Assembly (NCBI GenBank): GCA_965202625.1
Contig: CBDBBI010000010.1
Coordinates: 2,016,001-2,080,000, forward strand
Length of the DNA stretch: 64,000 bases
From: a bacterium
GTDB lineage: Bacteria > UBA8248
Direction: 5' to 3'
In this document: positions 2,045 to 22,483 of the stretch, one piece after another
Numbering within the stretch: the first letter of the stretch is position 1
How the letters are laid out: every line of letters starts with the position of its first letter
Notes under the pieces: generated by a model
What the model saw: only the letters and a program-made list of their open reading frames with translations
The model's database searches: none
Told to the model about the DNA's origin: nothing
Made by a program: the position numbers and the translations under genes

Positions 2045-2046
2045 AC

Positions 2047-2973: not shown

Positions 2974-3529
2974 ATGCGGACCTTCTTTATCGGGGCTGGT
3001 GCGGAGGTCTGCGGATGGCGAAAAATTACAAGAAAAGCGTTCGCGCATTCTTGGGATAAGCTACAGAGGACACATTCATCATTGGAGCCGCATCAAAGAT
3101 GAAGTTCCACGTCAAGGCCGGCGTTGTCATCGTGATGGGACAGATGGATGAAAAATAGAGGTGAAGGAAAAACGTGAAGTGCGGGACCGCTCTCGACTGA
3201 AAGGTGAAATTCTTTTACACCAAGCATATACATGGAGGAGAGGGATGTGTGCGAGGGAATCTGTCGTATGACGAACGAACGAGGAGAGATGGAGAGAACC
3301 CTCGACAGGGCGGCCCGGAACTACTATAAGAGCGAATCGAGCCCCTCCGAGGAGGGTTGAACGTGACGCCCGTCCCGAGAACGCAGAATGCCAAACCTAC
3401 GTTCTGGAAACCTCGTCGCTGAAATGAAAAGCGTGATATACTGCGTCCAAGCTTGAGGTGGAGACCTTCGCTGCGGGGCCGCTGGTTCGCCACAGAGGCT
3501 CGGGACGATGGGAAAGAGGTGGGTTGGCG

Positions 3530-3799
3530 ATGGAGGAAGGTCGCTCGGTTCTGGGCGTCTTTGTCGGGTTTTTTTTCTGGTTTGGAGTTGCGTATTATTT
3601 TTATCATCGAGATTTTATAGGAGCTTTTTGGTTCGCTGTGGCCAGTGGCCTTTTGTATGGCGTCTATCTTTGGTTTCGCCATCTTTGGGCGGCGCGCCCA
3701 AGGCCTCTGCATATGCAGGATGAAGATGTTGATTTACCGTCCCGATCAGATTTGCCGAATTACGATTTTGAGAACGCTAAACCGAAAGACTTTGAATGA
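3530..3799 (+). CDS. Small two-helix membrane protein, hypothetical
   Basis: Two hydrophobic segments and an acidic tail; start inferred inside the 3458..3799 ORF. Confidence 0.6.
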   Translation: MEEGRSVLGVFVGFFFWFGVAYYFYHRDFIGAFWFAVASGLLYGVYLWFRHLWAARPRPLHMQDEDVDLPSRSDLPNYDFENAKPKDFE

Positions 3800-3864
3800 C
3801 GCGAATTTGATTTTCATTTCTTCTCACGACTTTCTCGGCTGGTTGCGGCGCGATTGGGGCTGAC

Positions 3865-4275
3865 GTGTCTCAGTTCGTGATATATGCCCACAGCGGCGAA
3901 TACGATCGCCTCTACCAAGTAGCGACCATGGCGGTGAGCGCCGCCGCGAATGGAGACGAGGCGCACGTGATTTTATTTTTTCATGCGTTAAAACGATTCG
4001 TGGACGATGACCTAGAAGGCGTCTTCGCGCCTTCCTCTCCTGAAGGGAGCGCCACTCCCGGAAAAGAGGGCGTTCGGGGCGCCAAACCCTCCTCTATCAG
4101 TGAGCTGATAGATTCCGCCAGGCAGCTTGGCAAGCTAAGGTTGTATGCTTGCGCCGCGCAGCCGAGGTTGATGGGCCTCGCGTCCGAGGACTTAGCGGAT
4201 ATTGTGGATGAAATCATTAGTCTGCCCGATTTTATGAGGAAAACAGAGGGGGCAAAGACAAAACTCTTCATTTGA
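3865..4275 (+). CDS. DsrE/DsrF-like (sulfur relay) family protein
   Basis: Size and pattern: AAA.GDE..VILFF.AL, then LYAC, IVDEII, F.......LFI C-terminus. Confidence 0.7.
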   Translation: MSQFVIYAHSGEYDRLYQVATMAVSAAANGDEAHVILFFHALKRFVDDDLEGVFAPSSPEGSATPGKEGVRGAKPSSISELIDSARQLGKLRLYACAAQPRLMGLASEDLADIVDEIISLPDFMRKTEGAKTKLFI

Positions 4276-4376
4276 GCGCGTTCGTCTCGGCTTTCTCGCG
4301 GTGATTTTGCGATCGTGTTGAACGCGCGGAGAGGACGGCTTTGCTTTTGTCCCTGAATCATTTTCGAGAAAAGCGC

Positions 4377-5237
4377 ATGAAATTTCTGGCGGCGGCGGCG
4401 CAAATTGGACCGACATTGGGGAACCTCGACGCGAATCGCGAATTGCTCGTCAAGGAGGTGAAAAAAGCGGAGGAGAGGGGCGTCGATCTCCTCGTTTTTC
4501 CCGAGCTTTCGTTGACGGGTTATTTTCTGAAGGACATGGTTCCTGATGTGGCCGTGAGGCAAGGAGACGAGTGCCTGCAAGAAATCGCCGCTCTCAGTCG
4601 GCGTGTCTCCCTTGTGGTTGGTTTTGTGGAGGAGTCCGCCCAATACGGGTTTTTTAATTCCGCAGCCTATTTCGAGAACGGGGAGATGCTGCACGTTCAT
4701 CGCAAGGTGTATTTGCCAACCTATGGACTGTTCGACGAGAATCGCTACATGGGCGCAGGAGACAAGATTCGCGCTTTTGACACCCGATTCGGCCGGTCGG
4801 CCGTCCTCATTTGCGAGGACGCTTGGCACCCGAGCCTGGCCGGAATCGCGTCGCTTGATGGCGCGGATTTACTTATTGTTCCCTCCGCCAGTCCTGCGCG
4901 CGGCGTCAGAAAGGGAAACGGCGAGGGAGGCCTCGCGATTCAGCGCGTTTGGCGCGCCCTGACGAGAACCTATGCCGCGGCCTACAATCAGCACGTCATT
5001 TTCAGCAACAGGGTGGGATACGAGGATGGAATCCATTTTTGGGGTGGCTCGGAAATTCTCTCACCCAGCGGCGAGCCGATCTCTCGGGCACGGCGCGCTC
5101 GAGAGCAATTTTTGGTCGCCTCTATTGACACGGCGAACGTGCGGCGCGCGAGAATCTCATCCCCCACGACAAGAGACGAGGACATGCATCTCACCCTCCG
5201 CGAACTCCGCCGCATCCAGAAGTCGCGGGAGAGGTAG
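4377..5237 (+). CDS. Nitrilase-family carbon-nitrogen hydrolase, likely stand-alone glutaminase subunit of NAD+ synthetase
   Basis: Glu-Lys-Cys triad motifs FPELSLTGY, HRKVYLPTYGLFDE, LICEDAWH; SASP; close to nadE. Confidence 0.8.
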   Translation: MKFLAAAAQIGPTLGNLDANRELLVKEVKKAEERGVDLLVFPELSLTGYFLKDMVPDVAVRQGDECLQEIAALSRRVSLVVGFVEESAQYGFFNSAAYFENGEMLHVHRKVYLPTYGLFDENRYMGAGDKIRAFDTRFGRSAVLICEDAWHPSLAGIASLDGADLLIVPSASPARGVRKGNGEGGLAIQRVWRALTRTYAAAYNQHVIFSNRVGYEDGIHFWGGSEILSPSGEPISRARRAREQFLVASIDTANVRRARISSPTTRDEDMHLTLRELRRIQKSRER

Positions 5238-5386
5238 GTTCTCGTATCGCGCCCCGGTTCTTGAATTGTACCCGGAATTCCTTTTTGCAGTTTCCGCGTC
5301 CCGAACCGTCTTAGGCGATTCTGCCCACGCTTCTGGAGTCTCGCTGACAACACGGGAGTGAGGCGGCCATGGGGATGGCCGTCGCT

Positions 5387-6166
5387 CTATTCGTCTCGCC
5401 ATTCGGTTTTTGAGGGCAGTGCGCCGCCCCTGAAGTTGAACAATAGCACTGAAGCGTCGCTCGCGTTTTCCACCGTATGCCAAGCGCCGCCGGGCGTGTG
5501 CACCAGATCGCCCGAGGACGCTTCGATGGTTTCGCCCTCCATGATGAAGTTCATGCTCCCTTTCAATACGAGAGTCGCCTCGTCCATCGTTTTCTGATGC
5601 CGATGAACGTGCGGTCTCGCGCCCGGAGGAAAGAAGACCACCTGGCACTCCAGGTATTCTGTGGAGAAGGCGCGCTTGAGACTATTTTCCTTCACTGTTT
5701 TCGGGTCGAAAGTCGTCGTTAGGTCGTCGAGGTCGCCCTTGATGTGCATCACGGGAGGCGCAAGAGGGTTTTTTACAGATTCCGGATCGGGATTCGGGGG
5801 TGGATCGCCTTCAGGCAGGAAGAAGCCCGATGGCATGACGCCGCCCCTGAAATTGAATTCTATCAATTCATCCTCGTCGATGTTTTTCATGTGGTGCATC
5901 GCGCCGCGCGGATTGAGGAGAAGGTTTCCCCTCTCGACGCTGAACGTCGCGCCGTTGCTGTGAATCAACCCGTTTCCACTGTAGATGAGGTAGCCCTCGT
6001 CCATCTCTTCATGGTGTGCATGATAAGGAGGATAAACGCCCGCGCCGAGGGCGATCACCCGCACTTCGAGATTGGGCGTGTCAACGCAGAGGGGAGATCC
6101 CTTTGTCCGCGCTTCTTCTTCATCGTAAACCCATTTTAGATTTTCGATGTTTCCTACGTAAGGCAT
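5387..6166 (-). CDS. Bicupin (two cupin-2 domains) protein
   Basis: Two internally repeated domains with H-x-H...DE and G..H motifs (YHAHHEEMDE/HVHRHQKTMDE; NFRGG twice). Confidence 0.8.
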   Translation of the reverse strand: MPYVGNIENLKWVYDEEEARTKGSPLCVDTPNLEVRVIALGAGVYPPYHAHHEEMDEGYLIYSGNGLIHSNGATFSVERGNLLLNPRGAMHHMKNIDEDELIEFNFRGGVMPSGFFLPEGDPPPNPDPESVKNPLAPPVMHIKGDLDDLTTTFDPKTVKENSLKRAFSTEYLECQVVFFPPGARPHVHRHQKTMDEATLVLKGSMNFIMEGETIEASSGDLVHTPGGAWHTVENASDASVLLFNFRGGALPSKTEWRDE

Positions 6167-6312
6167 GTGAACTCCGTATTATAGGCCTATGGGGCAAGAT
6201 ATACTTGGCGTCCCATAGGGTCAAACGCCTCAATCCATTGCGGAGAGAGTCCTCAAGGGGCATGATAGAAGGCGAATCGCCAGAGAAACATCTCTCATAA
6301 TGGAGATTCCGC

Positions 6313-7164
6313 ATGTTGGATGAGGGGCTTATTCGCCACGCGATGGCGGAACTCGCACTGGACAGCAAGCTCGCCGTCGGCCTGCTCTCCGGGTTCATTC
6401 GGGATGAGGTCTCCAAGGTGGGCGTGAAAAAGTTGGTTCTCGGCCTCTCGGGCGGAATCGACAGCGCGCTTTCCGCTTTTTTGGCGGCGGACGCCATGGG
6501 CCCCAATAACGTAACGGGCTTGATAATGCCCTATCGGCTCTCCAGCCCCCAAAGCGAAGAAGATGCGCGTGCGGTGGCCAAGGCCAGCGGCGTCCAGTTG
6601 AGAGTGGTGGACATTTCGCCGCAGGTGGACTCGTATTTTGGGCGGTTCCCCGATGCCGACAATCTTCGTCGAGGAAACAAGATGGCTCGGGAAAGGATGA
6701 CCATTTTGTATGATCACTCGGCCATGCTCAACGCTTTGGTGGTGGGCACGAGCAACAAAACCGAGCTTTTGCTCGGATATGGGACCTTGTTTGGAGACAT
6801 GGCCAGTGCCGTAAATCCCATCGGGGACTTGTTCAAGACGCAGGTGCGTCAGCTCTCCCGTTATGTTGGTGTGCCGGCGCAAGTGGTGGAGAAGGCCCCG
6901 AGCGCGGACCTTTGGGCAGGGCAAACCGACGAGCAGGAGCTCGGTTATGGCTACGAGGTAGCCGACGCCGTTTTGTATCATATGATAGACTGCCGCTATA
7001 AGCGCGAGGAGCTTTTGGGCGAAGGTTTTGCACCTGGGCTCGTAGATGGCATTCAAAAACTCGTGCAACGCAGCCAATACAAAAGACGCTTGCCGCTGAT
7101 CGCGAAACTCAGCCACCGAACGATCGACAGGGATTTCCGCTACGCCAGAGACTGGGGATTATAG
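6313..7164 (+). CDS. nadE: NAD+ synthetase (synthetase domain only)
   Basis: [12 protein letters not shown]-loop, [39 protein letters not shown]. Confidence 0.95.
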
Positions 7165-7286
7165 TCCCGCCCGCCCCCCTTGATGCGAACCCGGAACTAT
7201 GGCAATATGGAACTTTACATCCTTGCTCCATCTTCGATTTCGTTGGGCGCGCGTGATTTTTTGATTCTCAGGGGGGGGGCAAAATC

Positions 7287-7739
7287 GTGTTGAAAGAAGG
7301 ATCGAAAGCCCCTGCCTTCGCCCTGCGCGATGAAAACGGCAAGGTTCACCGACTCTCGAAATACAAGGGACAGAAGATCGTTCTCTATTTCTATCCGAAA
7401 GACAACACGCCTGGATGCACGACGGAGGCGCGGGATTTTAATAAAAACCTGGGGAAGATACAGAAGAAAAATGCCATTGTCATCGGCATCAGCCCGGACA
7501 ATGAGGTCAGCCACAAGAAATTCTCAAAGAAGCTGGAGTTAGACTTCACTTTGCTGGCGGACCCGGATGGTCTTATCTCGTCAAAGTATGAGGCGTATGG
7601 CGAGAAAACGCTGTTTGGCAGAAAGTTTAACGGAATTTTCCGCACAACCTATATTATTGATGAAAAGGGCGTCATCGAAAAAGTTTTCGAGAACGTCAAG
7701 GTGGATGGGCATACGAAAGACGTGCTGAAGGCGTTGTAG
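7287..7739 (+). CDS. bcp: Peroxiredoxin, BCP/PrxQ subfamily (single Cys)
   Basis: YFYPKDNTPGCTTEA motif; the usual second Cys is replaced by Arg. Confidence 0.92.
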   Translation: MLKEGSKAPAFALRDENGKVHRLSKYKGQKIVLYFYPKDNTPGCTTEARDFNKNLGKIQKKNAIVIGISPDNEVSHKKFSKKLELDFTLLADPDGLISSKYEAYGEKTLFGRKFNGIFRTTYIIDEKGVIEKVFENVKVDGHTKDVLKAL

Positions 7740-7889
7740 GCGTTCGGTCGCGTCCTTTCTCTGTTTTTCAGAATCTCCAATCAAAGAACGTGAGCGGCGA
7801 TTTGTCCGGAAAGACAACCTGGGCTTGAAGCGGCGGCCCGCCGCCTAGATTCCATTCAAGGGAAGCGAGAGACGGGAGGTAGCGCTAAA

Positions 7890-8360
7890 ATGACGATTCG
7901 ACCGAAAGAACTGCCGGAGACTACGGAGAATTGGGCCGAAGCCGACTGCAAGGGCCATGCGAAGAGCATCGTCACCGTCAAGGGTGGCCATACCGTGATT
8001 GTGGATGAACCCAAACGCTTGGGCGGCTCGGACGAAGGCCCCTCGCCTATGGGGTATCTCGTGACTTCGCTCGCCGGCTGCACCGCGGTGATTTTGGAGA
8101 GGTGCGCGAAAGAGGCGAAGCTCGAGATCGGTTCCCTGAAGGTGAAGTCCACCATCGTCTATAGCCCGAGAGGCATTGCGGGCCAAGAGGGATACCAGTC
8201 GAATCCGAGCGAGGCGCATAGCGAAATATGGCTTGAGATCGAGGCGAGCGATGAGCAGGTGGAGGCGTTGAAGGCGGATTATTTCCGAAGATGCCCCGTA
8301 TACAACCTGTTCAAGGCCAGTGGTTGCGTCGTGCGCGACGTTTGGCGCATCAACGAATGA
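7890..8360 (+). CDS. OsmC/Ohr-like family protein
   Basis: DEPKRLGGSDEGPSP...LAGC and RCPV two-Cys pattern. Confidence 0.85.
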   Translation: MTIRPKELPETTENWAEADCKGHAKSIVTVKGGHTVIVDEPKRLGGSDEGPSPMGYLVTSLAGCTAVILERCAKEAKLEIGSLKVKSTIVYSPRGIAGQEGYQSNPSEAHSEIWLEIEASDEQVEALKADYFRRCPVYNLFKASGCVVRDVWRINE

Positions 8361-9551: not shown

Positions 9552-10583
9552 GTGAGCGAGCCTTCCGTGGATGCGTTTGAATACTTCTTTGACAAGCCTT
9601 GGTCAGACGGCCTGCCAGTCATTCCCCCAACGGAGGAGCGCTTGGCGCTTATGCTGGCGGGTGCGCGCCGCGCTCCGGGCGACGTCATAGGCGACGTCCC
9701 TCCGTTGTTGGGGCAGGCGCGCGTCGAGACGATCGCGGTTCACGCCGTCATGGCGGGATGCAAACCAGAGTATATGCCTGTCCTCATCGCGGCGATGGAG
9801 GCCATTCTTGAGGAGAAATTCAACATGGGCGGCGTGCAGGCGACGCTCTCTTGCGCGGCCCCCCTTTTGATCGTGAATGGCCCCTACGCCAAACAAATCG
9901 GACTGAGCGGCGGACTTGGCTGTTTCGGCCCCGGCAATCGCGCAAATGCGACAATCGGTCGCGCCATCAGGCTTTTGCTTCTCAACACGGGTGGCGGAAT
10001 ACCGGGCATCACTTCCATGAGCACGTTCTCTCAGCCGGCGAGATTCACTTTCTGCATAGCGGAGAACGAGGAGGAAAGCCCTTGGGCGTCTTTTGCGGAG
10101 ACGAGAGGCTTTGACGCGAATGACAACGTTGTCACAGTGGTGAACGTAGAGGGCCCCTGCATGGTCTGGGACGACGTGAGCGACGACCCGGAACGAATGT
10201 TTCCCTCCATTGCGGACGCCATGTCGCATTTGGGAGCGTGGAATTGTTGGGCCAGCACGGATTTGGTGGTGGCGATGAGCCCGCAGCAAGCGGCGATTTG
10301 CGCCAAGAATGGATACTCAAAGGCCGACGTTCATAGGCGTCTTTGCGAAATTGCGGGCCGCACCGTGGGCACGCTCAAGACGGGAGGGCATTTCAGGGAA
10401 AACCGCATTCGGAGCTTCCCGATCCCCGTTGATCTGGATGATGAGGATGCGTTCGTGCCGACGATCAAGGAGGCCGAAAGACTGTTCTTGATCGTGGCGG
10501 GCGGAGTTCCGGGGCCGATGACGGCCGTGATGCACGGTTGGAACGGAAACAGCCGTTCCGTATCCCGGGCGTTTGCGTCCTGA
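9552..10583 (+). CDS. Uncharacterised UGSC-associated ~340-aa protein, paralogue 1
   Basis: PWSDGLPVIPPT, VHAVMAGCKPEY, LIVNGPY, GNRANATIGRAIRL, AENEEESPW motifs shared with the next three genes. Confidence 0.85.
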   Translation: MSEPSVDAFEYFFDKPWSDGLPVIPPTEERLALMLAGARRAPGDVIGDVPPLLGQARVETIAVHAVMAGCKPEYMPVLIAAMEAILEEKFNMGGVQATLSCAAPLLIVNGPYAKQIGLSGGLGCFGPGNRANATIGRAIRLLLLNTGGGIPGITSMSTFSQPARFTFCIAENEEESPWASFAETRGFDANDNVVTVVNVEGPCMVWDDVSDDPERMFPSIADAMSHLGAWNCWASTDLVVAMSPQQAAICAKNGYSKADVHRRLCEIAGRTVGTLKTGGHFRENRIRSFPIPVDLDDEDAFVPTIKEAERLFLIVAGGVPGPMTAVMHGWNGNSRSVSRAFAS

Positions 10584-10611
10584 CGTTGTCCACATATTTT
10601 CTGAGGGAGCG

Positions 10612-11646
10612 ATGGCTTTGAACGGCCCTCAGGACGAATTCGAGTTTTTCCTGGAAAAGCCGTGGTCGGATGGATTGCCCGTCGTCACCCCATCGCAAGA
10701 GCGCGTAGAGCGGATGCTCTCGGGGACGAAGAGGAATCCTGCCGAGGCGATAGGCCGCGTTCCTCCCGCCATGGGCGAGGCCACGGTCCACAGCGTGGCG
10801 GTTCATGCGGTGATGGCCGGTTGTAAGCCGGAGTATTTGCCGGTCGTTCTCGGCGCAGTTTCCCTCATGCTTCGTGATGCGTTCAACGTGAACGGCGTGC
10901 AAGGCACGATGCACGGCGTAGCGCCCCTTATGATCGTCAATGGCCCCTATTCGCAGAAGATCGGCATTCACGGAGGCAATGGTTGCTTTGGCCCCGGTTT
11001 TCGGGCGAACGCCTCCATCGGCCGCGCCATTCGCCTGATCTTGATGAACCTGGGCGGGGGCATACCGGGCGTCTCTTCGATGACGATTTTCGGCACCCCG
11101 CTGCGTTATACCGCGTGCGTCACGGAGAACGTAAAGTTTCACCCCTGGAAGACGCTCGCGGCATCCAGGGGATACGGGGCGGATGAAAACGTGATCACCA
11201 TGGCCATGGTGGAAAGCCCGCGCCTGACCTTTGATGACGTCAGCGAGGAGCCCGAGCGTCTGCTCAGGGGCATCGCGGATGCGATGACGGGCCTGGGCTC
11301 CTGGAACATGCACGCGCCCAGGACGGATATGGTCGTCGCCATGAATCCCCAGCACGCGAAAATTTGCTCTGATGGCGGGCTTTCGCGCGCGGACGCGCAT
11401 CGGCGTCTATGCGCGCTGGCGGGCCGCAAGGTGAAGGAGCTCAAGCGCGGCGGCAACTGGCGACGCGCGCGCGCCCTGGATATGAAAATTGACGTGGACC
11501 CCGACGATGATGAGTGTTTCGTCCCCGTCATCAAAGACCCGAGCGACCTCCATCTTATCGTCGCCGGCGGCTGGGGTTCGGGCAGCGCGGTTTGCCATGG
11601 GTGGAGCGGCGGCAGTCGCGCCGTTCATGGGGCGTATGCGGTTTGA
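10612..11646 (+). CDS. Uncharacterised UGSC-associated protein, paralogue 2
   Basis: Same motif set; GAGGGAG RBS before ATG 10612. Confidence 0.85.
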   Translation: MALNGPQDEFEFFLEKPWSDGLPVVTPSQERVERMLSGTKRNPAEAIGRVPPAMGEATVHSVAVHAVMAGCKPEYLPVVLGAVSLMLRDAFNVNGVQGTMHGVAPLMIVNGPYSQKIGIHGGNGCFGPGFRANASIGRAIRLILMNLGGGIPGVSSMTIFGTPLRYTACVTENVKFHPWKTLAASRGYGADENVITMAMVESPRLTFDDVSEEPERLLRGIADAMTGLGSWNMHAPRTDMVVAMNPQHAKICSDGGLSRADAHRRLCALAGRKVKELKRGGNWRRARALDMKIDVDPDDDECFVPVIKDPSDLHLIVAGGWGSGSAVCHGWSGGSRAVHGAYAV

Positions 11647-11687
11647 CGCCTGGCGCGCCATGCGCGACGAAACGAAGTCGTATCTCC

Positions 11688-12704
11688 ATGGATGAGTTCG
11701 AGTTTTTCTTTCAAAAACCCTGGTCGGATGGCCTTCCGGTGGTTCCGCCTACCCGAGAACGCATGGCCGCCATGCTCTCGGGCGCGAGGTTGCGCGAGGC
11801 CGAGGTCATCGGTCTGGTGCCGCCCCTCATGGGGGAGGCGACCGTCGGGGCGGTTGCCGCACACGCGGTGATGGCGGGGTGCGCGCCCTCGTTTTTACCC
11901 CTCGTCATCGCAGGTCTCGAAGCCCTTCTCGCACCGAACCTCAACCTGAACGGCGTCCAGGGAACGATGCACGGTGCGGCACCCTTGCTTATCGTGAACG
12001 GACCGTATGCGCGGAAAATCGGTCTGCATGGCGGCACGGGATGCTTTGGCCCGGGCTTTCGTGCGAACGCGGCCATCGGCCGCTCCCTCCGCCTCATTCT
12101 CATGAACCTGGGCGGCGGCGTGCCGGCTTCCGCCTCCATGAGCACGTTCGGCTCGCCCGCCAGATATACGTTTTGCGTCGCCGAGAACGAGGCGGAAAGC
12201 CCCTGGGCACCGCTTTCCGTCACGAGAGGATTTCGTCGTGACGACGACGTCGTGACGGCCGTGATGGTGGAGGCACCCCAAGGTTACATCGACGATTATT
12301 CAAAAGAGCCGGAATCTTTTTTCGTGGGCCTGGCGGATAAAATATCCACGTTGGGCGCGCTCAACGTTTGGCTGAAGACCCAGGTCGTCGTCGCCCTGGG
12401 GCCGGATCATGCGCGGATGTGCGCGCGCGCGGGACTTGGCAAAGAAGACGTTCGCCGCAGAATGATGGCACTTGCGCGCAGACCTCTGGGGGAGCTCAAA
12501 AAATCGGGTTACTGGCGTGAGGAGATGGTGGCCAAATGGCCGTTTGACGCAGATCCGCAAGACGATTCGTTCATGGTTCCGGCTATCAAGGATGAAGACG
12601 ACCTCATCCTTGTCGTGGCGGGCGGAACTCCCGGCCCCGTGACGGCCGTCATGCCCGGCTGGGTGGACGGCAGCACGGCGGTCTCCATGGGTTATCGCGC
12701 ATGA
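11688..12704 (+). CDS. Uncharacterised UGSC-associated protein, paralogue 3
   Basis: Same motif set; start MDEFEFFF chosen by alignment to the paralogues. Confidence 0.85.
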   Translation: MDEFEFFFQKPWSDGLPVVPPTRERMAAMLSGARLREAEVIGLVPPLMGEATVGAVAAHAVMAGCAPSFLPLVIAGLEALLAPNLNLNGVQGTMHGAAPLLIVNGPYARKIGLHGGTGCFGPGFRANAAIGRSLRLILMNLGGGVPASASMSTFGSPARYTFCVAENEAESPWAPLSVTRGFRRDDDVVTAVMVEAPQGYIDDYSKEPESFFVGLADKISTLGALNVWLKTQVVVALGPDHARMCARAGLGKEDVRRRMMALARRPLGELKKSGYWREEMVAKWPFDADPQDDSFMVPAIKDEDDLILVVAGGTPGPVTAVMPGWVDGSTAVSMGYRA

Positions 12705-12741
12705 ATCGGGGACGTTTCAGACGGGGGATACTTTTGGAGGC

Positions 12742-13767
12742 GTGCGCATGGATGGGTTCGAGTTTTTCTTTGAGAAGGAATGGTCGGACGGATTGCCCGT
12801 GGTGCCGCCGACCGAAGAGAGAGTCGCTTGGATGCTCTCTGGAACCACGCGGGCACCAGACGAGGTCATAGGCTACGTCGCTCCGGCGGGGGGTGCGCTC
12901 AGCGTCCACGGCGCGGCGGTCCACGCCGTGATGGCGGGGTGCAAGCCTGCGTATATGCCGGTGTTGACGGCGGGTCTGGAGGCGCTTCTTGATGCGCGTT
13001 TCAACGTCAATCTCATTCAGGCCACGACGAGTGCTGGTGCTCCTTTCATGTTGGTGAACGGCCCCTACGCCAAGGAAATCGGGCTGCACGGCGGAGTGGG
13101 CTGCATGGGTCCCGGCTTTCGCGCGAATCTCACCATCGGCCGCGCCGTGAGGCTCATCATGATGAACGTAGGCGGCGGCATCCCTGGCATCACCTGTCTC
13201 GGTGGTTTCGGAGGTCCCTGGCGCACCACTTTTTGCATCATGGAGAACGAGGAGGAGTCGCCTTGGGAGTCGTATGCGGAATCAAAGGGGTTTTCGGGGG
13301 ACGACAACGTGGTGAGCATGATTCCCCTTGAGGGGCCGGCGCAGGTATGGGACGACGCGAGCCTGACTCCCCAGCGATTGCTCACGACCGTGGCCGACAT
13401 GATGTCCGCTTTGGGCGGACCCAACATGTATCGGCAAGCGGATATGGCGGTTGTCCTGGGCGCGCAACATGCGCATCTTTGCGCCGACGCCGGCCTCGGC
13501 CGCGCCGACGTTCACCAAAAATTGCTGGAGATGGGCGGTCGCACCGTTCGGGATATCAAACGCGGCGGCATCTGGCGCGACGAGAAGGGCGCGAATCGTT
13601 GGCCGTTTCCCGTGGACGTGAACGATGACGATTTTTTCGTGCCCGCCGTTGGCGATCCCGACGATCTGCATTTGATCGTCGCCGGAAGCAGGGGTTCGCC
13701 CTCCAGCATGGTGATGCACGGAATTACAGTGGCGTGCCGGGCGGTGACAAAGAAATTTGACGTGTGA
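12742..13767 (+). CDS. Uncharacterised UGSC-associated protein, paralogue 4
   Basis: Same motif set; GGAGG RBS just upstream. Confidence 0.85.
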   Translation: MRMDGFEFFFEKEWSDGLPVVPPTEERVAWMLSGTTRAPDEVIGYVAPAGGALSVHGAAVHAVMAGCKPAYMPVLTAGLEALLDARFNVNLIQATTSAGAPFMLVNGPYAKEIGLHGGVGCMGPGFRANLTIGRAVRLIMMNVGGGIPGITCLGGFGGPWRTTFCIMENEEESPWESYAESKGFSGDDNVVSMIPLEGPAQVWDDASLTPQRLLTTVADMMSALGGPNMYRQADMAVVLGAQHAHLCADAGLGRADVHQKLLEMGGRTVRDIKRGGIWRDEKGANRWPFPVDVNDDDFFVPAVGDPDDLHLIVAGSRGSPSSMVMHGITVACRAVTKKFDV

Positions 13768-13790: not shown

Positions 13791-13821
13791 GAGGCGTGAA
13801 GCCTCCGGATTTCCACGCCTC
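13791..13821. terminator. Hairpin after the paralogue array (possible terminator)
   Basis: GAGGCGTG...CACGCCTC inverted repeat; no clear U-tract. Confidence 0.35.
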
Positions 13822-14099
13822 TACTTCCCCTTCAAAACTGACAACCTCACAACCTTGACGGTCATAGGTCCAAAGCCTGTTCCCGCAACCACGCCAAACC
13901 ACTGAAAAATCTGGTATTTTTGATTTTTGGCGACATCTATTAGAAATCACCGGGATTCAGAAAAACCACCGGAACAAACATTCAATGTTGTAATTTTAGG
14001 GATCGCGTAGAGAGGTACCTGGCAATGTGTTCGTACTGAACTTCCACGATTTCCATCCGCGAACGATTACGTGATTTTAACAATTAGCGCTAACAGGCC

Positions 14100-15341
14100 C
14101 TATTCCTCGTCTGAGGGTTGCCACTCGATATCCGAATCCTCTTCAAGGGCGTAGGAAAAATCTTTCACCTCCGTTTCCGGCTGGTAGTCCGGGTACAGTC
14201 GGTGCAAGTCCCACTCGTTGATCGCGGTGCGGATCTTGTGGCGCATTCGACGATGAATGCCGGCACCCGCGACGACCTGTGGTGCCGGTGGCCGCGCACC
14301 GTAAGCCTGCTCATAGATGCCGCGCAACTTTTCCAGCACCGCAACGAGCTCGTCATCACCCGGTTGCTCCAGGATGACGCATTCGCGTTCCAGTAGCTGC
14401 ATACCAATTTCGGCCTGTTCGACAATGCCTTTGTATCGGCTCTGCCCTAGCCTCAATCCTATCTTGTCCTTGTCACGCTTATGTCCGTCGGGGTTGATGA
14501 CATGGAAGGCGAAATCGTCCGTCACCGCACCGACCACGACCAAGCCAGGTAAGGCCTCGTCCGCGACGCGTCCCATCCAGCGCGCAAGCTCTGCATAGGC
14601 GCGACCCCGTTGCAAGATCGAATAAGAAGCGACCAGTTCAATCTCGTCGAGAAGAACGACCCAACCTCGATAACCAGCGGCCTTGATAAGCTCGACGACA
14701 AAGCGCAGCCGCTTCGGGGGCAACTCCGCCGCCCTTGGTGCGGAAAATGGATAGTATTCGGCTTTGTGGATTTCCTTCAAACCTCTGCGGAGATTCGCTA
14801 CTGCCATACGATCGCCGGACCAGAAGGCTTCGATTTCCTCTTCAAGACTGAAATCATCGTTGTCTTGATGCACGATGAGGCTCGCTGGGAATATTGGATG
14901 CAGGTCTCCGCGCGACGCGGCATCGTGGACCCATTGGATGAACACTTCATACCGCTCCGAGGATGGATTCAACCGCAAGCTCAACTCTTCCATCAACCGC
15001 CCGTCGTGTCCGGGCAACCTGCCGCTCTCCATAGCGGCGGCAAACACCTTCTCTAGGTTGTAAAGTGGCGTCTCCTTGCTGATCGCCACCCTACTGCACA
15101 CGAAGTCTTCGGCCAACGCCCGCTGTTCCAGATGCGACAAAAGGTGCGATTTGCCGGTTCCAAAGCCGCCTGAAACCAGCATCGCCCGCGAATTCCCAGT
15201 ATCCCCTGGGACCTCCGCCAACATATGTGCAAAACGTTCTTCCACCTCCGGCTGATTACAGCCCAATTCGCGCACCGCATCTCGGTTGGGTACGCCGTTG
15301 CGCAACGCCTCCACCGCCTGCCGGGCAGCGACCTCTGGCAT
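14100..15341 (-). CDS. DUF2791/BrxD-type P-loop ATPase
   Basis: N-terminal EALRNGVP, Walker A GGFGTGKSHLL, Walker B WVVLLDEIE, typical of BrxD-like ATPases. Confidence 0.8.
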   Translation of the reverse strand: MPEVAARQAVEALRNGVPNRDAVRELGCNQPEVEERFAHMLAEVPGDTGNSRAMLVSGGFGTGKSHLLSHLEQRALAEDFVCSRVAISKETPLYNLEKVFAAAMESGRLPGHDGRLMEELSLRLNPSSERYEVFIQWVHDAASRGDLHPIFPASLIVHQDNDDFSLEEEIEAFWSGDRMAVANLRRGLKEIHKAEYYPFSAPRAAELPPKRLRFVVELIKAAGYRGWVVLLDEIELVASYSILQRGRAYAELARWMGRVADEALPGLVVVGAVTDDFAFHVINPDGHKRDKDKIGLRLGQSRYKGIVEQAEIGMQLLERECVILEQPGDDELVAVLEKLRGIYEQAYGARPPAPQVVAGAGIHRRMRHKIRTAINEWDLHRLYPDYQPETEVKDFSYALEEDSDIEWQPSDEE

Positions 15342-15353
15342 AGCATCTTCTCC

Positions 15354-16310
15354 TTAGCTCAACCGCACTAAAGCCGAGACTGGATTGACAATATTCCGGT
15401 CTCGCACATCGTCCATTATTCTCACCTTCAATGCTTCGTATATCCCCCAATCCCTTCCCGATTCCTGCTCAAAGAACTGATAGTTGGTCCTCACTATGAG
15501 CAATGTTCCTGTTAGTAGATCTGTGTCGTCGATGATCTCTCGTAACAGTTGATAGTGATCCATAGTCATCGCCCTGTTGTAATAGTGCTGTCCGTCCTTC
15601 GGGTTGCGGGCGACTGTCAATCGCGCATTGTCGAGCATGACCACCGTGCCCGACCATCCCGCCTGCTGCACCCAATAAAAGATCGACCTGAGGAAGTATC
15701 GCGCCGTGGCACGGTTGATTGTTGTGCAAATCTGAAACGTTCTGACTCTGCCAATTCTTGGGTCGGTACCATTGAGCCAATCTATGACTGGCTGGCGTGT
15801 TGTCCTTCCCGCTGCTGAACTATCAGCCTGCTCCAGGCAAATTTGGGTCATAGCTATCCGAAACGCTTTCACCATGTTTTTGTTCTTCGTGACTTCCTTT
15901 TCAATTTTTTGCCTCAATCCAAGAAGGACCGATCTATGTTCCAAGCCGTTAAGTTGTGCTACGGCATCAATAACGTTTTCTACTGTTCCCGGATCAATGT
16001 CTTTGATTTGATAATTCAATGACTCCAGAGAGCGCAACATAAATTGGCGGGCAAGGAGCCGCCAATCGATCTGTGCTGCAATGCCGAAGAAGATTTTCTG
16101 TGGCATGTGGACGCGATGTTCCTCAGCGTCCAGATTCAGGAAAATATAGCCTTCCTTCTCGCAACACGACCTCAAGGTTTCCAACAATTCCCATTTCCGG
16201 TCATCATCAATAACCGAGAATTTTACTGCCGCGCCACCATCCTTGACGAAGGTAGATAGATATTCTTGCTTAAGAATGTCCATCCATTCCGCAATGGCAA
16301 TGTTCGTCAC
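15354..16310 (-). CDS. DUF2791-like protein with degenerate P-loop
   Basis: GGAAVKF strand followed by no GxxxxGK; WSGTVVMLDN in place of LLDE; YQLLREIIDD and IYEALKVRI segments resemble the BrxD-like C-terminal region. Confidence 0.65.
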   Translation of the reverse strand: MTNIAIAEWMDILKQEYLSTFVKDGGAAVKFSVIDDDRKWELLETLRSCCEKEGYIFLNLDAEEHRVHMPQKIFFGIAAQIDWRLLARQFMLRSLESLNYQIKDIDPGTVENVIDAVAQLNGLEHRSVLLGLRQKIEKEVTKNKNMVKAFRIAMTQICLEQADSSAAGRTTRQPVIDWLNGTDPRIGRVRTFQICTTINRATARYFLRSIFYWVQQAGWSGTVVMLDNARLTVARNPKDGQHYYNRAMTMDHYQLLREIIDDTDLLTGTLLIVRTNYQFFEQESGRDWGIYEALKVRIMDDVRDRNIVNPVSALVRLS

Positions 16311-17119
16311 GAAGGATTCTTCCTAAAACTAATCCCGCAATATTTTACATTATTTCCACTTGGGTCGGTAAAAAACAGTAAGTTTTTTGATGGCTGCCTA
16401 GTTCCGGTGGACGACGGAAAGGAGACGGCAGCCCCATCTCTGGTCTCTCGGGGGCCGTCGCGGTCGAGTAAATACACATCCCGAGCGAAGTCCTGTTGTG
16501 TATAGTCCACCGCACTGCCTGGTAGAGCGGTTATGAGCTTGTATATCCTGATTAACAGAATGATCCGCCCGGCATTCAGTGGACCATTCGGCGCATTAGA
16601 GGTGATGTCTTTGTAGACTCTGTAAAGCGTCTCGATAAACTGCTTCGGCTTGAAGCCACTCTGTCTGTTCTGATTGTGAATGAGAAAATTAACAAGATGG
16701 GATGGCCTTATATCCGAAACTTTTTTTCTGTCGACCTGCACAGCCCGATCCTTCGGGACGATCTTGACGACAGAGGGATAGGAAACTAGGATTCGATCCT
16801 GTTTATGAATGTTCAAACGTTTCTTTTGGGCCACTTGTAGAAGCTCGTTTATATACCTGTCCCTGAGAAACTGAACCTCTTCTTCTTGCGAAAATGGCCA
16901 GAAGGAGGTGATGGAAAAGTCTTCCCGTTGCAGCGCGGCCAAAGCCTCCCCGATCTTTTCCTGCTCGCGCCTAATGGTTGCAATCCGGCCCGTGTGAGCA
17001 GCTTTCTTGAGTGCCCTTGCCCTCGCCGCCAATTCCTTCGCGGCTTGCAACGCTGCCTCGGCGGCACGTTCTGTGTCAGCGCAGGCTTTTTCGAAACTTG
17101 TCATCTCAACTGATCCCAA
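16307..17119 (-). CDS. Hypothetical protein with N-terminal coiled coil, first gene of the DUF2791 module
   Basis: GGAGG RBS; Ala/Lys/Arg heptad-rich N-terminus; GTGA overlap with the next gene. Confidence 0.75.
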   Translation of the reverse strand: MGSVEMTSFEKACADTERAAEAALQAAKELAARARALKKAAHTGRIATIRREQEKIGEALAALQREDFSITSFWPFSQEEEVQFLRDRYINELLQVAQKKRLNIHKQDRILVSYPSVVKIVPKDRAVQVDRKKVSDIRPSHLVNFLIHNQNRQSGFKPKQFIETLYRVYKDITSNAPNGPLNAGRIILLIRIYKLITALPGSAVDYTQQDFARDVYLLDRDGPRETRDGAAVSFPSSTGTRQPSKNLLFFTDPSGNNVKYCGISFRKNPS

Positions 17120-17429
17120 CTGATCCCTCCAAGGACTCTCCAGGAAGAGTCATGCTAAACATCCATCCGGTCGTTCGTCAAGTTTGGCGCGGGTCAGGGA
17201 CAGAGTTATTGCATTTGGCCTATGATCGACCTTGTGAGGGCATCGGAGTTTCCGATGTGTAGATGCTTTCGATGAACGGAGATACCGGGGAGATCGACGT
17301 AACCTTATGGTGCCACTCCCGGACGTTTTGTCCCCCATGATTTGCCCATCGCATGTTGTTCCTTTCACGGAAGTTAAGGGATGGAATTGCTTACATGCCA
17401 TCGCCGTTTCGGGGTGGTTCCGGATGAGG

Positions 17430-17460
17430 AAGCCCCGGCAAGATGCCGGGGCTTTGCTTT
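17430..17460. terminator. Intrinsic terminator hairpin downstream of the molybdoenzyme gene
   Basis: AAGCCCCGGCA-AGA-TGCCGGGGCTT perfect stem just past the stop at 17470. Confidence 0.75.
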
Positions 17461-17469
17461 TCCTGGACG

Positions 17470-19731
17470 TCAACCGCCCCCGTTCTCGCCGTTTTTCTGC
17501 ATCACCGCCCGGCAGACGCGCTCGGGGGTGATGGGCAGGTCGTGGAGCTCCGCGCCTATCGCGTCGTTGACGGCGAGGGCGACGGCGGCCGGTGCGTTGT
17601 TGCACGGCGGCTCTCCAACGCCGCGCGCGCCGTATGGACCCGCCCCCTCGCCGCATTCGAGGACGAGGGACGCAAACTCGCCGACGTCCGATGAGGTGGG
17701 TATCAGGTACTCGTGAAAACTCTGGGAGCGGCAATCTCCCTCCACCATGGTGATTTCCTCGTGCAGCGCGTAGCCGATTCCCATCACCGCGCCTCCTTCG
17801 AATTGCCCTTCCACGCTCGTGGGGTTGAGCGCGCGCCCCACGTCATGGGCGGCGACGTGCTTCAGAAGGTTCACCTCGCCGGTCTCTACGTCCACTTCCA
17901 CCTCGCTCGCGTGAACGCCGAAGGTGTAATCCGACCAGCCGCCCATGCCGTTCATGTAGCGTTGCGGATTCTCATAGTCGTGCCCCGGCATGTTGTAGCC
18001 GTGCGTGCAGTGGAGCGACTCGCCCATTCCCTTGGCTTCGCCCGCCGCGGCTCCAATCCCCACCCTTCTCTGGGGAGCGGAGGAGACCCAGGCCTCGCCG
18101 CCCCCGAAGCGAACGTCCTCCTCCGCGGCTTCGAGCAATGATGCCGCGCCTTTGGCCAACGCCTTGCGAACTTCCTCTGCGGCGAGTTGAACGGCGTGTC
18201 CCGCCATCAACGTTTGGCGCGAGCCTGCGGTGATGCCCGATAGCGGGGTGGTGGCGGAATCGGACAAGCGGGTGGAGACCTGATCGAGCCTGAGCCCCAA
18301 GGTTTCGGCCGTGATGCTTTGAAGCGTAGCCCCCTGGCCCGCGCCTATGTCCGGAGCGCTCACGCGGACCACGGCGCTGCCGTCCGGCTCCAGGTGAACC
18401 GCCGCGTTCGCGTCGTCGTGCGGTCTTCCGTAGCCGGTGATGTTCGCCGCCGCCGCCCGGCCGATGCGCTTTCCCGGGCCCGGCTTCGCGGGCGTGCCCA
18501 AAGCCTGAAGCGCGCTGTCCAGGCACCCCTCCAGGTTGGGCTTGTAAGGAATTTTCTGGCCGGTGGGCAGCTTTTGCCCTTTCTGAATGAAATTTTTTCG
18601 CCTGAACGCGTATTTGTCCATGCCGATGGCGTCCGCGATCAGGTTTATCTGGTTCTCGTAGGCGAAGCAGACCTGGTTCGACCCGACGCCCCGCATGGCG
18701 TTGGTGATGGGGTTGTTCGTGAGATAGCCGTGCGCGCGAATTTGCGCGTTGGGAACGTCGTAAGGGCCTGCGGCGATGCACATGGCGCCCAGGAGGAACA
18801 AGTTGGACTTGTATGGATAGGCGCCCGCGTCGCCCACGATGTCCGCCTGTAAGGCGAGAATTTTTCCGTCCTTGGTCGCTCCCGTCTTGTATCTCATATA
18901 GAAGGGGTGTTTCTTTGAAGTGTTTCGGATGCCTTTCTCGCGGTTCAGCACCATCACGGCGGGCCTTCCCGTATGCCAGGTGAGCAGCGCCAGGTAGGGT
19001 TCCACCGTCAACATTCCCTTGGCGCCGAACCCGCCGCCGACGTAAGTGCCGAGGTGGCGGACGCGGCTCTGGGATATCCCCAGAATCGCCGCGATGGCGC
19101 GATAGTATTCAATGAGCTGCGTGCCGACGCGGATGGTGAGGACGCCGTCCTCCTCCATCCAGGAGGCGCCGGAGGCGGGCTCCAGAAAGGCATGTTCCGC
19201 AAGCTGCGTCGTGTATGTTTTCTCGATGACCACGTCGGCTTCGGCGAACGCGGCTTCCACGTCCCCCCGGGCGACTTCAAAATCACACGCCTGCCGCTTC
19301 TCCGCGCTCGCCTCGTCGTGGCGCGTCGTCCACACGCCTTCTTCCGCGTCAATTTCCACCTCAATGGCCGCGATGGCGGCGTCGAGCGCGTCTCTCGTTT
19401 CGGCGCCCACGATCGCCAGGGCGTCTCCGGTATATTCGATCTTCTCTTCGACCAAAACGGGTTGATGGGGAAGACCCGGCGTGCCCGAGCCGAACCGCAC
19501 GTTTTTGCCGGGAATGTCCTTCGCGGTCAGAACGGCGACGACGCCTGGAATTTTCTCGGCCCTCGAAGCGTCAAGTTTTTTTAGGCGGCCCACCGGAGTG
19601 GGTGTGAACAACACGCCGCATTGCAAGGCGCCAGGGGGTATCGCGTCTTCTCCATAAGGCATGGAGCCGTCCGCTTTTGGTATGGAATCGTATCGAACGT
19701 TCGACTTGCCGATGATGTCGTAATCGGCCAT
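17470..19731 (-). CDS. Xanthine dehydrogenase-family molybdopterin-binding (large) subunit
   Basis: True start MADYDIIGKS with AAGGAG RBS; EHAFLEP, GGGFGAKG, AMRGVG, DIGAGQG, TAGSRQT, VEGQFEGG, GARGVGEPP. Confidence 0.92.
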   Translation of the reverse strand: MADYDIIGKSNVRYDSIPKADGSMPYGEDAIPPGALQCGVLFTPTPVGRLKKLDASRAEKIPGVVAVLTAKDIPGKNVRFGSGTPGLPHQPVLVEEKIEYTGDALAIVGAETRDALDAAIAAIEVEIDAEEGVWTTRHDEASAEKRQACDFEVARGDVEAAFAEADVVIEKTYTTQLAEHAFLEPASGASWMEEDGVLTIRVGTQLIEYYRAIAAILGISQSRVRHLGTYVGGGFGAKGMLTVEPYLALLTWHTGRPAVMVLNREKGIRNTSKKHPFYMRYKTGATKDGKILALQADIVGDAGAYPYKSNLFLLGAMCIAAGPYDVPNAQIRAHGYLTNNPITNAMRGVGSNQVCFAYENQINLIADAIGMDKYAFRRKNFIQKGQKLPTGQKIPYKPNLEGCLDSALQALGTPAKPGPGKRIGRAAAANITGYGRPHDDANAAVHLEPDGSAVVRVSAPDIGAGQGATLQSITAETLGLRLDQVSTRLSDSATTPLSGITAGSRQTLMAGHAVQLAAEEVRKALAKGAASLLEAAEEDVRFGGGEAWVSSAPQRRVGIGAAAGEAKGMGESLHCTHGYNMPGHDYENPQRYMNGMGGWSDYTFGVHASEVEVDVETGEVNLLKHVAAHDVGRALNPTSVEGQFEGGAVMGIGYALHEEITMVEGDCRSQSFHEYLIPTSSDVGEFASLVLECGEGAGPYGARGVGEPPCNNAPAAVALAVNDAIGAELHDLPITPERVCRAVMQKNGENGGG

Positions 19732-19932
19732 TTGTTTGCTCCTTACGATGTAAGAGGGTTTTTGAAAATCAATCTTCATTCTGCCAAACTTCGACGCAAC
19801 TGAGAAGGGGAAATACGCTTGCGCCCGCGTTTTCCAGGGGACAATCCAGCGGGCGACATTCTGGACAAGGGATGCTTTGCGAGATATGATGTGGATAGGG
19901 CTCAATTCACATACCCTACATTGGAGGGCGCC

Positions 19933-20463
19933 ATGGCGAACGAAATGGGATTCATCGACCCGACTGCGGGGGGGACGGCCGAGAAAATAGAACTTGCGCA
20001 ACGGCCCGTCGATCTTTCTGGCAAGGTGGTGGGACTTCTCGACAACACGAAAGAGCAGGCGGACATTATTCTCGAAACTCTGGGAAACGCTCTCCGAGAA
20101 CAATATGACGTGGCGAAGGTCGTCTCGCAGCGCAAGGAGCATTACTCGAAGCCCGCCACGGATGAGATGATTGCGGAAATGGCCCAGGAGGTGGACGTGG
20201 CGATAGCCGCGCTGGGGGGCTGAGGCTCGTGTACGTTGTGCAGTGTGCACGACACGGTGGAATTTGAGAAACGAGGCGTTCCTTCGACCACCATCATCAC
20301 CGAGGCGTTCAAGAACGCAGCGGACTTTCAGTTTCGGGGCAAGGGCATGGAAGGGCACCCATACGTGCAGTTGCCCCACCCGGTCAGCAATTTGCGACCC
20401 GAGGAGATGCGGGAGACGACGCTGAGGTTCGTCGAGGAAGTGGCCAGCCACCTGAAAACCTGA
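19933..20463 (+). CDS. UGSC-family selenoprotein (thioredoxin-like; in-frame TGA 20221-20223 read as Sec97)
   Basis: ORF-track pieces 19819..20223 and 20236..20463 are in the same frame and join as ALGG-U-GSCTLCSVHD; GGAGG RBS; hairpin 11 nt after the TGA. Confidence 0.88.
20228..20256 (+). promoter_or_regulatory. Bacterial SECIS-like hairpin of the UGSC gene
   Basis: GTTGTGCA-GTG-TGCACGAC stem-loop (20235-20253) with a G-containing apical loop, starting 11 nt after the UGA. Confidence 0.7.
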
Positions 20464-21285: not shown

Positions 21286-21360
21286 AAGACGCCGGCGGCT
21301 TTGCCCGAAATGCCCATCCTGTCCTCGAGAGGATGGGCGTTTTGTTCATCGTGGCGGAAC

Positions 21361-22469: not shown

Positions 22470-22483
22470 GTGGAGGGATGTCC

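Follow-up and report, generated by a model that had tools for sequence, protein, structure and literature searches.

A four-gene paralogue array and a distal UGSC selenoprotein as a putative two-component thiol/selenol enzyme

The 64,000-nucleotide stretch of bacterial DNA analysed here (the window; positions 2,016,001 to 2,080,000 of the forward strand of contig CBDBBI010000010.1, assembly GCA_965202625.1, GTDB lineage UBA8248) carries an array of four tandem paralogous genes on the plus strand (9552-13767) and, further downstream on the same strand, a gene for a selenoprotein of the UGSC family (19933-20463). The family of the four array proteins is called FAM in this report. On balance, the four paralogous FAM subunits and the UGSC protein probably make up a two-component thiol/selenol enzyme, with the single UGSC protein 6 kb downstream shared by all four. 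Earlier literature already contains the UGSC family and a UGSC/Unknown_1 fusion; the homology of UGSC to the selenocysteine (Sec) domain of GrdB/PrdB and the pairing with a partner of new fold appear to be new.

The genomic association between the two families is strong. Loci were scanned with our own FAM and UGSC profiles, reading through TGA codons, in the best 80 of 561 related loci by similarity, all from species-representative genomes. A UGSC gene is found on the same strand and at most 300 bp from a FAM gene in 64 of the 80 loci, and anywhere in the flank in 67. Counted by gene, 71 of 92 FAM genes adjoin UGSC, which lies downstream in 44 cases and upstream in 27. An in-frame TGA is present in 70 of the 71 UGSC genes examined, Cys taking the place of Sec only in locus L073. 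The genome of the window has three UGSC genes. One is that of the window itself, and the other two start 114 and 135 bp after a FAM gene. In five congeners, for which coordinates were compared by hand, all 33 UGSC genes are less than 5 kb from a same-strand FAM gene. Of these, 27 are at most 300 bp away and a further one is 460 bp away; the remaining five, of which each genome has one, are found 2.6-4.9 kb downstream of an array of four FAM genes. In a wider sample of the phylum, UGSC is encoded in 43 of 51 genomes, and in the family of the window in 41 of 41, with 2-9 copies each.

The association extends to fusion proteins. Among the top 150 FAM representatives, 63 proteins are longer than 400 aa, and 33 of these contain UGSC. 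The whole UGSC domain is N-terminal in 13 of them, 17 start just past the Sec position, and 3 end just before it. The truncated forms are explained as Sec fusions that gene callers cut at the TGA, and both fusion orders therefore exist. AhpC-TSA (2), the catalytic chain of ferredoxin-thioredoxin reductase (FTR; FeThRed_B, 1) and thioredoxin reductase (TrxR, 1) are the other domains in the 63 long proteins. A separate set of 91 FAM relatives of 602-2000 aa contains PF24696 in 46 proteins, TrxR-type Pyr_redox_2 in 25, AhpC/Redoxin in 2 and a piece of CoA-transferase III in 1, with no Pfam domain in the remaining 15. FAM is thus fused to TrxR, thioredoxin (Trx)/AhpC-like and FTR domains, which with UGSC make four kinds of reductant-side module, and therefore resembles the acceptor end of a thiol/selenol relay. 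An initial annotation of the window, made from the letters alone, had stated that the family commonly adjoins or is fused to UGSC. With 64 of 80 loci and 33 of 63 long proteins, the profile and neighbourhood analysis bears this out: in a clear majority of cases FAM adjoins UGSC or is joined to it in one protein, and the two families form an obligate genomic partnership.

The UGSC protein of the window has 176 aa, with Sec97 encoded by the TGA at 20221-20223, followed by Cys100 and Cys103. The product matches PF24696 with an E-value of 7e-52 (176 bits, cut-off 25) and NF041046 with 149 bits (cut-off 125), and the TGA is codon 97, within the motif GGUGSCTLC. The genome encodes selB (above cut-off) and a selD that itself contains a TGA/Sec codon. 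The proposal in the initial annotation of a UGSC selenoprotein 6 kb downstream on the same strand is therefore correct. A candidate Sec insertion sequence (SECIS) at 20227-20252 (plus strand) consists of a 9-bp hairpin that begins 6 nt past the UGA, and the folding energy of the 70-nt stretch that holds it is not significant (z-score 0.36).

Profile comparisons link UGSC to selenoprotein B. From a set of 41 UGSC proteins, 22 weakly match TIGR01917, the selenoprotein B of glycine reductase (best E-value 1.5e-5), and further weak matches are to GrdF (17), GrdH (12), TIGR01918 (11) and PrdB (8). An hhalign comparison of the 41 UGSC proteins with 12 GrdB sequences from Bacillota genomes gives a probability of 96.1% and an E-value of 3.7e-9 over 92 columns, with UGSC 78-175 placed on GrdB 327-421. 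The alignment sets U-G-S-C-T-L-C on U-G-T-C-T-R-C and aligns the PHP motif as well. Selenoprotein B is not matched over its full length: the TIGR01917 score is 16 bits (cut-off 602), and only GrdB 325-409 is covered. UGSC is thus homologous to the C-terminal, Sec-bearing domain of selenoprotein B (GrdB/GrdF/GrdH/PrdB) and exists as a protein by itself.

The structural model of UGSC is confident (pLDDT 96.2) and predicts an alpha/beta/alpha sandwich of flavodoxin-like type, in which helix 98-113 has Sec97 at its N-terminus. Foldseek rows with E-values of 1e-4 to 1e-3 and TM scores of about 0.5 are mainly flavodoxin-like proteins and similar alpha/beta folds. Neither a thioredoxin nor a solved GrdB or PrdB structure is among the fold-search rows shown. 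The Trx fold suggested for UGSC in PMC2398784 was considered and is not favoured, as the model, a prediction only, has repeating strand-helix units of the flavodoxin-like type. The best match of the UGSC profile to PDB sequences (E-value 0.022) was judged to be due to chance.

A complex between the two domains was modelled on a natural Cys-type fusion (P0334), which was split into its UGSC domain (residues 1-195) and its FAM domain (205-549), with a 13-row fusion alignment as the input. Three runs gave complex scores of 0.85, 0.85 and 0.84, compared with 0.00 for the best control; the mark set for this score is reached by 116 of 157 solved complexes and by 2 of 215 mismatched pairs. The runs have at least 84% of their contacts in common, and the partner pLDDT is 85. 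Interface residues were converted to window numbering by the constant offsets of alignment A4. The confidently predicted interface includes, from UGSC, its N-terminal arm, the invariant Phe126, and the Cys that takes the place of Sec together with the two residues next to it. From FAM it includes Trp17, the PPT motif, the helix leading to Cys70 (residues 50-67), residues 93-94 and residues 97-99, the last being part of the QATLSC/QGTMHG loop that varies between the paralogues. The model supports binding of the FAM and UGSC domains to each other.

FAM is large and has no counterpart among characterised families. More than 7535 proteins were assigned to it at E-values of at most 1e-3 among 8000 candidates scored. 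Counted as clusters at 50% identity, the family has 5887 members at E-values of at most 1e-3, 1649 of them at E-values of at most 1e-30. The hosts named for the fetched loci belong to Nitrospinota, Dehalococcoidia/Chloroflexota, Burkholderiales, Methylomirabilota/Rokubacteria, Acidimicrobiales and other groups. The four paralogues of the window match no family in Pfam-A or NCBIfam, 84 diverse members have no recurrent Pfam family even at E-values up to 1, and the best match of the FAM profile to PDB sequences has an E-value of 0.36. For paralogue 1, AlphaFold2 with an alignment of 84 sequences gives a model of very high confidence (pLDDT 95.6, pTM 0.93). This model finds no PDB entry in Foldseek at an E-value of 1e-3 or better; the best row, a class I fumarate hydratase subunit (7xky_A), has an E-value of 2e-3 and TM scores of 0.29-0.33. 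The best VIA-align match among 48,161 chains has a Z-score of 5.8 over 90 residues, and none reaches a Z-score of 8. The fold of FAM, as confidently modelled, thus appears to be without a solved counterpart. The family had been called uncharacterised before these searches, and neither the sequence profiles nor Foldseek led to a convincing relative.

The conservation pattern of FAM suggests an enzyme. In 240 distant FAM domains, Asp19-Gly-Leu-Pro22, Asn132 (99%), Arg137 (100%), Glu171 (99%) and Trp178 (97%) are near-invariant. Cys70, in the AVMAGC motif, is kept in 232 of the 240 (96%), Cys168 in 83% and Cys124 in 27%. FAM therefore looks like an enzyme with one essential Cys, rather than one with a three-Cys site for a metal cluster. 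An Fe-S hydro-lyase of the class I fumarate hydratase type, an idea that came from the weak fumarate hydratase rows and from one PF01989+UGSC+FAM fusion (P0166), was dropped because only a single Cys is conserved family-wide. A congener has a FAM copy with an in-frame TGA (G185:C1:2513311-2514324, plus strand), which is either a pseudogene or a Sec-containing FAM, and the genome of the window has a decayed FAM fragment with several stop codons (G000:C10:969764-970177, locus L005).

The same single Cys is also what would be expected if FAM were a Cys-dependent enzyme of non-redox type, such as a hydrolase, an isomerase or racemase, or a lyase acting on organic acids, with UGSC protecting or regulating its thiol. 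The faint fold resemblances to hydro-lyases and cyclic amide hydrolases and the frequent neighbour genes of the MmgE/PrpD, amidase, enolase-type and CoA-transferase families fit this explanation as well. The fold matches are not significant by either program, however, and the retention of Sec in 70 of 71 partners, together with the recurrent TrxR, FTR and Trx fusions, would be costly for protection alone. Moreover, the UGSC homologues in the Grd and Prd systems are catalytic. We regard a non-redox FAM as unlikely.

The array itself consists of four consecutive plus-strand open reading frames (ORFs) at 9552-10583 (343 aa), 10573-11646, 11514-12704 and 12742-13767 (341 aa). Paralogue 1 (9552-10583, loop QATLSC) scores 477 bits with the hidden Markov model of its own family. 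Homology places the likely start of paralogue 2 (loop QGTMHG) at the ATG at 10612, with GAGGGAG just upstream, so that the gene would span 10612-11646; an alternative TTG start at 10573 would make it overlap with the first gene. The likely start of paralogue 3 (loop QGTMHG), again by homology, is the ATG at 11688, giving a gene of 11688-12704, and paralogue 4 (12742-13767) has the loop QATTSA. In full-length alignments, paralogues 2-4 are 54-55% identical to paralogue 1, and identities over all pairs are 49-55%. The alignment contains the motifs WSDGLPV, HAVMAGC, NGPY, RANxxIGR, ENxxxxPW and L[IV]VAG. It has two variable stretches, which in the order of the paralogues read QATLSC, QGTMHG, QGTMHG and QATTSA for the first, and WNCW, WNMH, LNVW and PNMY for the second. 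The description of four tandem diverged paralogues with these motifs and variable stretches, already given in the initial annotation, is reproduced in full by the ORFs and the alignment. Every residue that is conserved in FAM is kept by all four. Upstream of the array, at a distance of about 1.2 kb, peroxiredoxin (AhpC/TSA, BCP-like) and OsmC-like genes are located at 7287-8360 (plus strand), and a cupin gene and a TPR gene stand between this pair and the array.

In a tree of the family, one clade of 27 rows contains all four paralogues, which belong to separate, supported subclades within it. Paralogue 1 groups with P0003/P0009 and with proteins from Tectomicrobia/Nitrospinota. Paralogue 2 groups with the FAM proteins of L012 and L014 and with P0080 and P0104 (including two Chloroflexota proteins, support 100/100), and paralogue 4 with those of L008, L009 and L010 from Burkholderiales (support 100/100). 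Paralogue 3 branches on its own at the base of this clade of 27 rows. Judged from this topology, the duplications of the array are old and do not represent a recent local burst.

Old and separate subclades are also what fixed subunits would display, and it is conceivable, at a probability that we place clearly below even, that the four paralogues are not four enzymes and are instead subunits of one hetero-oligomer, for example two heterodimers, working with UGSC. The four-gene array is intact in all five congeners. Tandem double-FAM proteins account for 13 of the 15 long relatives without a Pfam domain and for five further representatives, so that all 18 of the long proteins checked have this architecture, with Cys70 kept in 33 of their 36 halves; they suggest that the family acts as a dimer. 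Against a hetero-oligomer, at least as an obligatory state, Betaproteobacteria have single orthologues of paralogue 2 (L012) or paralogue 4 (L008, L009) alone with one UGSC, so that one type is enough in these hosts. Likewise against it are locus L006, with three FAM copies that do not match those of the window one-to-one, and the presence of all conserved residues in all four copies.

For a shared UGSC subunit, it matters whether the distal UGSC of the window is the partner of the array. The layout of array, spacer and UGSC is found in all five congeners, each with a single array of four FAM genes and, 2.6-4.9 kb further downstream, a UGSC gene. In L006, from a more distant metagenome-assembled genome of a nitrite oxidiser (64% identity), the order is three FAM genes, a minus-strand ORF, Xdh, UGSC and an enoyl-CoA hydratase (ECH) gene. 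The UGSC proteins nearest to that of the window are from L006 (75% identical), L012 (72%), L008 (67%), L009 (66%) and L014 (58%), and they adjoin the FAM proteins nearest to those of the window (63-75% identity). The Betaproteobacteria with orthologues of paralogues 2 and 4 have a single FAM gene followed directly by a UGSC gene of the GGUGSCTLC type. Different paralogue lineages thus use the same UGSC type, as one shared Sec subunit predicts. These comparisons support the distal UGSC as the cognate partner of the four-gene array.

Another explanation would be that the UGSC of the window is unrelated to the array and close to it by chance, the array acting alone or with a UGSC encoded elsewhere in the genome. 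The two are 6.2 kb apart and are separated by four genes on the minus strand, and they belong to separate transcription units. Yet the layout recurs in the congeners and in L006, the other two UGSC genes of the genome each adjoin a FAM gene of their own, and UGSC of the GGUGSCTLC type is the immediate neighbour of paralogue 2 and paralogue 4 orthologues in other organisms. Chance proximity is thus very improbable.

The spacer itself is of two parts. The first is a variable insert of three minus-strand genes at 14100-17119 (Pfam, PADLOC), with a GC content of 0.54 compared with 0.60-0.62 on the flanks. Two adjoining ORFs of the insert match different parts of BrxD/PF10923 and may encode a split or two-part ATPase; the third, of 270 aa, has no family match. 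A 12-bp hairpin is present at 17429-17455, between the insert and the Xdh gene. Another contig of the same assembly (C6, L004) is a variant of the locus, and its ends match window positions 13840-11851 (99.2%) and 18972-17469 (99.8%). Between paralogue 4 and Xdh, this contig has, at 1505-7855, genes for Cas1 and for a protein of 1272 aa that contains a Cas12f1-like TNB domain, together with a CRISPR array in which about 30 repeats recur every 43 nt; the repeat is about 25 nt and the spacers are only about 17-18 nt long. The window retains one solo repeat of the C6 type, with two mismatches, at 13818-13842 (minus strand), 51 bp past the stop codon of paralogue 4. The slot occupied by the BrxD-like genes is a variable defence-gene site that lengthens the spacer and is not part of the system.

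The second part of the spacer, the gene for a 753-aa Xdh-type molybdopterin-binding subunit (17470-19731, minus strand; Pfam), is a conserved spacer gene. It has the same position in L006, and the 2.6-kb spacers of three among the five congeners would, judged by their size, fit one Xdh-type gene. The initial annotation had viewed the system as split by both a DUF2791 island and the Xdh gene. This is correct for the island, the slot of which contains CRISPR-Cas genes in C6, and incorrect for the Xdh gene as an interloper, since it is kept in L006. The Xdh/aldehyde-oxidase-type molybdenum cofactor (Moco) large subunit stands alone at 17470-19731, without genes for FAD or Fe-S subunits beside it, and an Xdh-family gene is also present in the flanks of L046.

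Downstream of UGSC, two ECH genes and one acyl-CoA dehydrogenase (ACAD) gene follow directly on the plus strand (20497-23680; Pfam) and are possible operon mates. A promoter-like site upstream of UGSC (19862-19890, plus strand) has 10 of 12 hexamer matches and is a consensus match only. Among the 85 loci analysed for neighbours, counted as the number of loci that hold a family within 7 kb, CoA-transferase III is the commonest (15), followed by ECH (14), SDR (13), Luciferase-like monooxygenase (13), Zn-ADH (11), TctC (9), NHL (9), ACAD (7), MmgE/PrpD (6) and TauD (6). Taken together, the neighbour genes give a loose hint that the substrates may be small organic acids or CoA esters of such acids. 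In the second FAM-UGSC pair of the genome (L001, 7263-12132), a gene for CoA-transferase III fused to a dienelactone-hydrolase-like part begins 9 bp past UGSC, and a class III aminotransferase gene comes after it.

Such contexts could also be read to mean that UGSC serves the neighbouring acyl-CoA pathway (ECH, ECH, ACAD), and that FAM is dedicated to reducing, recycling or maturing it. In the window, UGSC has its own promoter-like site and the ECH genes begin 34 bp further on; the order UGSC-ECH is repeated in L006, a CoA-transferase III gene comes after UGSC in L001, and the FAM-TrxR fusions are readable as an electron-input module. However, genes for any acyl-CoA enzyme are in the minority (within 7 kb in 36 of 85 loci, directly adjacent in 6 of 85), and the fusions to three reductant-side modules, TrxR, Trx/AhpC-like and the FTR catalytic chain, fit FAM as an acceptor and not as a donor. 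A 340-aa protein with a near-invariant set of Arg, Asn, Glu, Trp and Cys, present as several paralogues per UGSC, is also unlike a chaperone. A recycling or maturation role is therefore doubtful, and the FAM-UGSC pair is treated in the following as a two-component enzyme.

In proline and glycine reductase, a selenolate attacks the activated substrate, a neighbouring Cys resolves the adduct to an Se-S bond, and a dithiol system reduces this bond. The mechanism proposed for FAM and UGSC is based on this chemistry. FAM would bind and activate a small substrate of the organic-acid type in a pocket made up of Cys70, Asn132, Arg137, Glu171 and Trp178. UGSC would dock through its conserved N-terminal arm, which would bring Sec97 up to two parts of FAM, the variable loop 93-99 and the helix leading to Cys70. 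The Sec97 selenolate might then attack the activated substrate or resolve a Cys70 adduct, Cys100 would close the Se-S bond with release of the reduced product, and the thioredoxin system (Trx and TrxR) would re-reduce the bond. On this reading, the paralogues would be substrate-specific modules around one Sec subunit, by analogy with GrdB/E, GrdF/G and GrdH/I, which share the rest of glycine reductase.

Several observations weigh against such an enzyme, or against the strength with which it can be proposed. The context names no substrate, since there is no recurrent third gene, even the commonest neighbour, CoA-transferase III, being present in only 15 of 85 loci. Cys70 is absent from the confident contacts of the P0334 model, and P0334 is a distant Cys-type homologue rather than the window's own proteins, with chains that are joined by a linker in nature. 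The sample of loci, ranked by similarity, favours the subfamily of the window, and the five congeners are kin of one lineage, not independent samples. For 66 pairs, the identities of FAM and UGSC to the proteins of the window are not correlated (Spearman 0.15, p 0.22); co-descent is seen in the pair-of-pairs correlation (0.49, n=2140) and in the nearest relatives only. Finally, FAM is not detectably related to the partner subunits of the reductases with which UGSC shares its Sec domain. It was rejected as a homologue of the pyruvoyl proenzyme GrdE/PrdA (hhalign of 84 FAM against 7 GrdE sequences, probability 0.1%), none of the 84 FAM proteins matches a Gly_reductase model at E-values up to 1, and hhalign of FAM with the N-terminal part of GrdB (residues 1-325), a comparison of sequence only, gives a probability of 0.2%. 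The Grd/Prd analogy is therefore carried by UGSC alone.

A more far-reaching interpretation, which we offer tentatively, is that FAM and UGSC represent a new and very widespread class of two-component selenoenzymes. A Sec domain of the GrdB/PrdB type may have been recruited to a subunit of novel fold, without homology to the Grd/Prd partners, for a Stickland-like reductive cleavage of carbon-heteroatom bonds (C-N, C-S or C-O, beside a carboxylate or thioester) in aerobic or microaerobic bacteria of marine, groundwater and soil habitats. The reaction would be powered by the thioredoxin system, and the paralogue arrays would be substrate cassettes that share one Sec subunit.

The window has a second selenoprotein gene 3 kb from UGSC (23704-24255, plus strand), which encodes a methylated-DNA-protein-cysteine methyltransferase with the active site P-U-H-R. 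Its TGA is codon 151, and translation with table 11 shortens the product to 150 aa. This methyltransferase is listed in reviews as a known selenoprotein family (PMC13188914).

Zhang and Gladyshev 2008 (PMC2398784) give no function for UGSC, suggest a Trx-like fold, and report a UGSC/Unknown_1 fusion, in which UGSC is joined to a conserved unknown domain with conserved Cys; Unknown_1 may be FAM. UGSC was still treated as uncharacterised in a 2022 review (PMC9312934), and a 2026 review (PMC13188914) places it among selenoproteins of largely uncharacterised function. In the literature searched, we found no paper that gives a function for UGSC, names a partner family, or links UGSC to GrdB/PrdB. 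The present analysis gives UGSC an obligate partner family, which comprises about 5900 clusters at 50% identity and has neither a Pfam model nor a solved fold, and anchors UGSC by homology to the GrdB/PrdB Sec domain. The predicted interface sets the Sec against the loop that varies between paralogues. A long-standing unknown thus becomes a testable system, in which the four-gene array and its one UGSC gene lend themselves to testing whether a Sec subunit can serve several partners.

With respect to known systems, FAM and UGSC can be compared with thioredoxin-dependent single-Cys reductases (MsrA/B, ArsC, 1-Cys and 2-Cys peroxiredoxins) and with the fused TrxR systems NTRC and AhpF. The likeness, as far as conservation indicates, would be in one nucleophilic Cys of the enzyme, a resolving (seleno)thiol pair on the partner, re-reduction by TrxR, and modules that are sometimes fused. 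In contrast to these enzymes, to which FAM is related neither in sequence nor in fold, the resolving partner is a Sec domain of the GrdB type and not thioredoxin. The glycine, sarcosine and betaine reductases and D-proline reductase are the other obvious reference. UGSC differs from GrdB in the absence of about 325 N-terminal residues, no GrdA, GrdC or GrdD gene is among the annotated recurrent neighbours of FAM loci, and the hosts are Nitrospinota, Chloroflexota, Burkholderiales and similar bacteria rather than Stickland fermenters. Nevertheless, the Sec of UGSC, both Cys residues of the UxxCxxC motif and the PHP motif align with protein B of these reductases. As in GrdB+GrdE, GrdF+GrdG, GrdH+GrdI and PrdB+PrdA, a Sec subunit is paired with a larger second subunit, and there are paralogous modules, which on the FAM side are putatively substrate-specific. 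A link to thioredoxin reductase is also common to both, in the form of the FAM-TrxR fusions on the one hand, and of the TrxR-like ORF beside grdE on the other hand.

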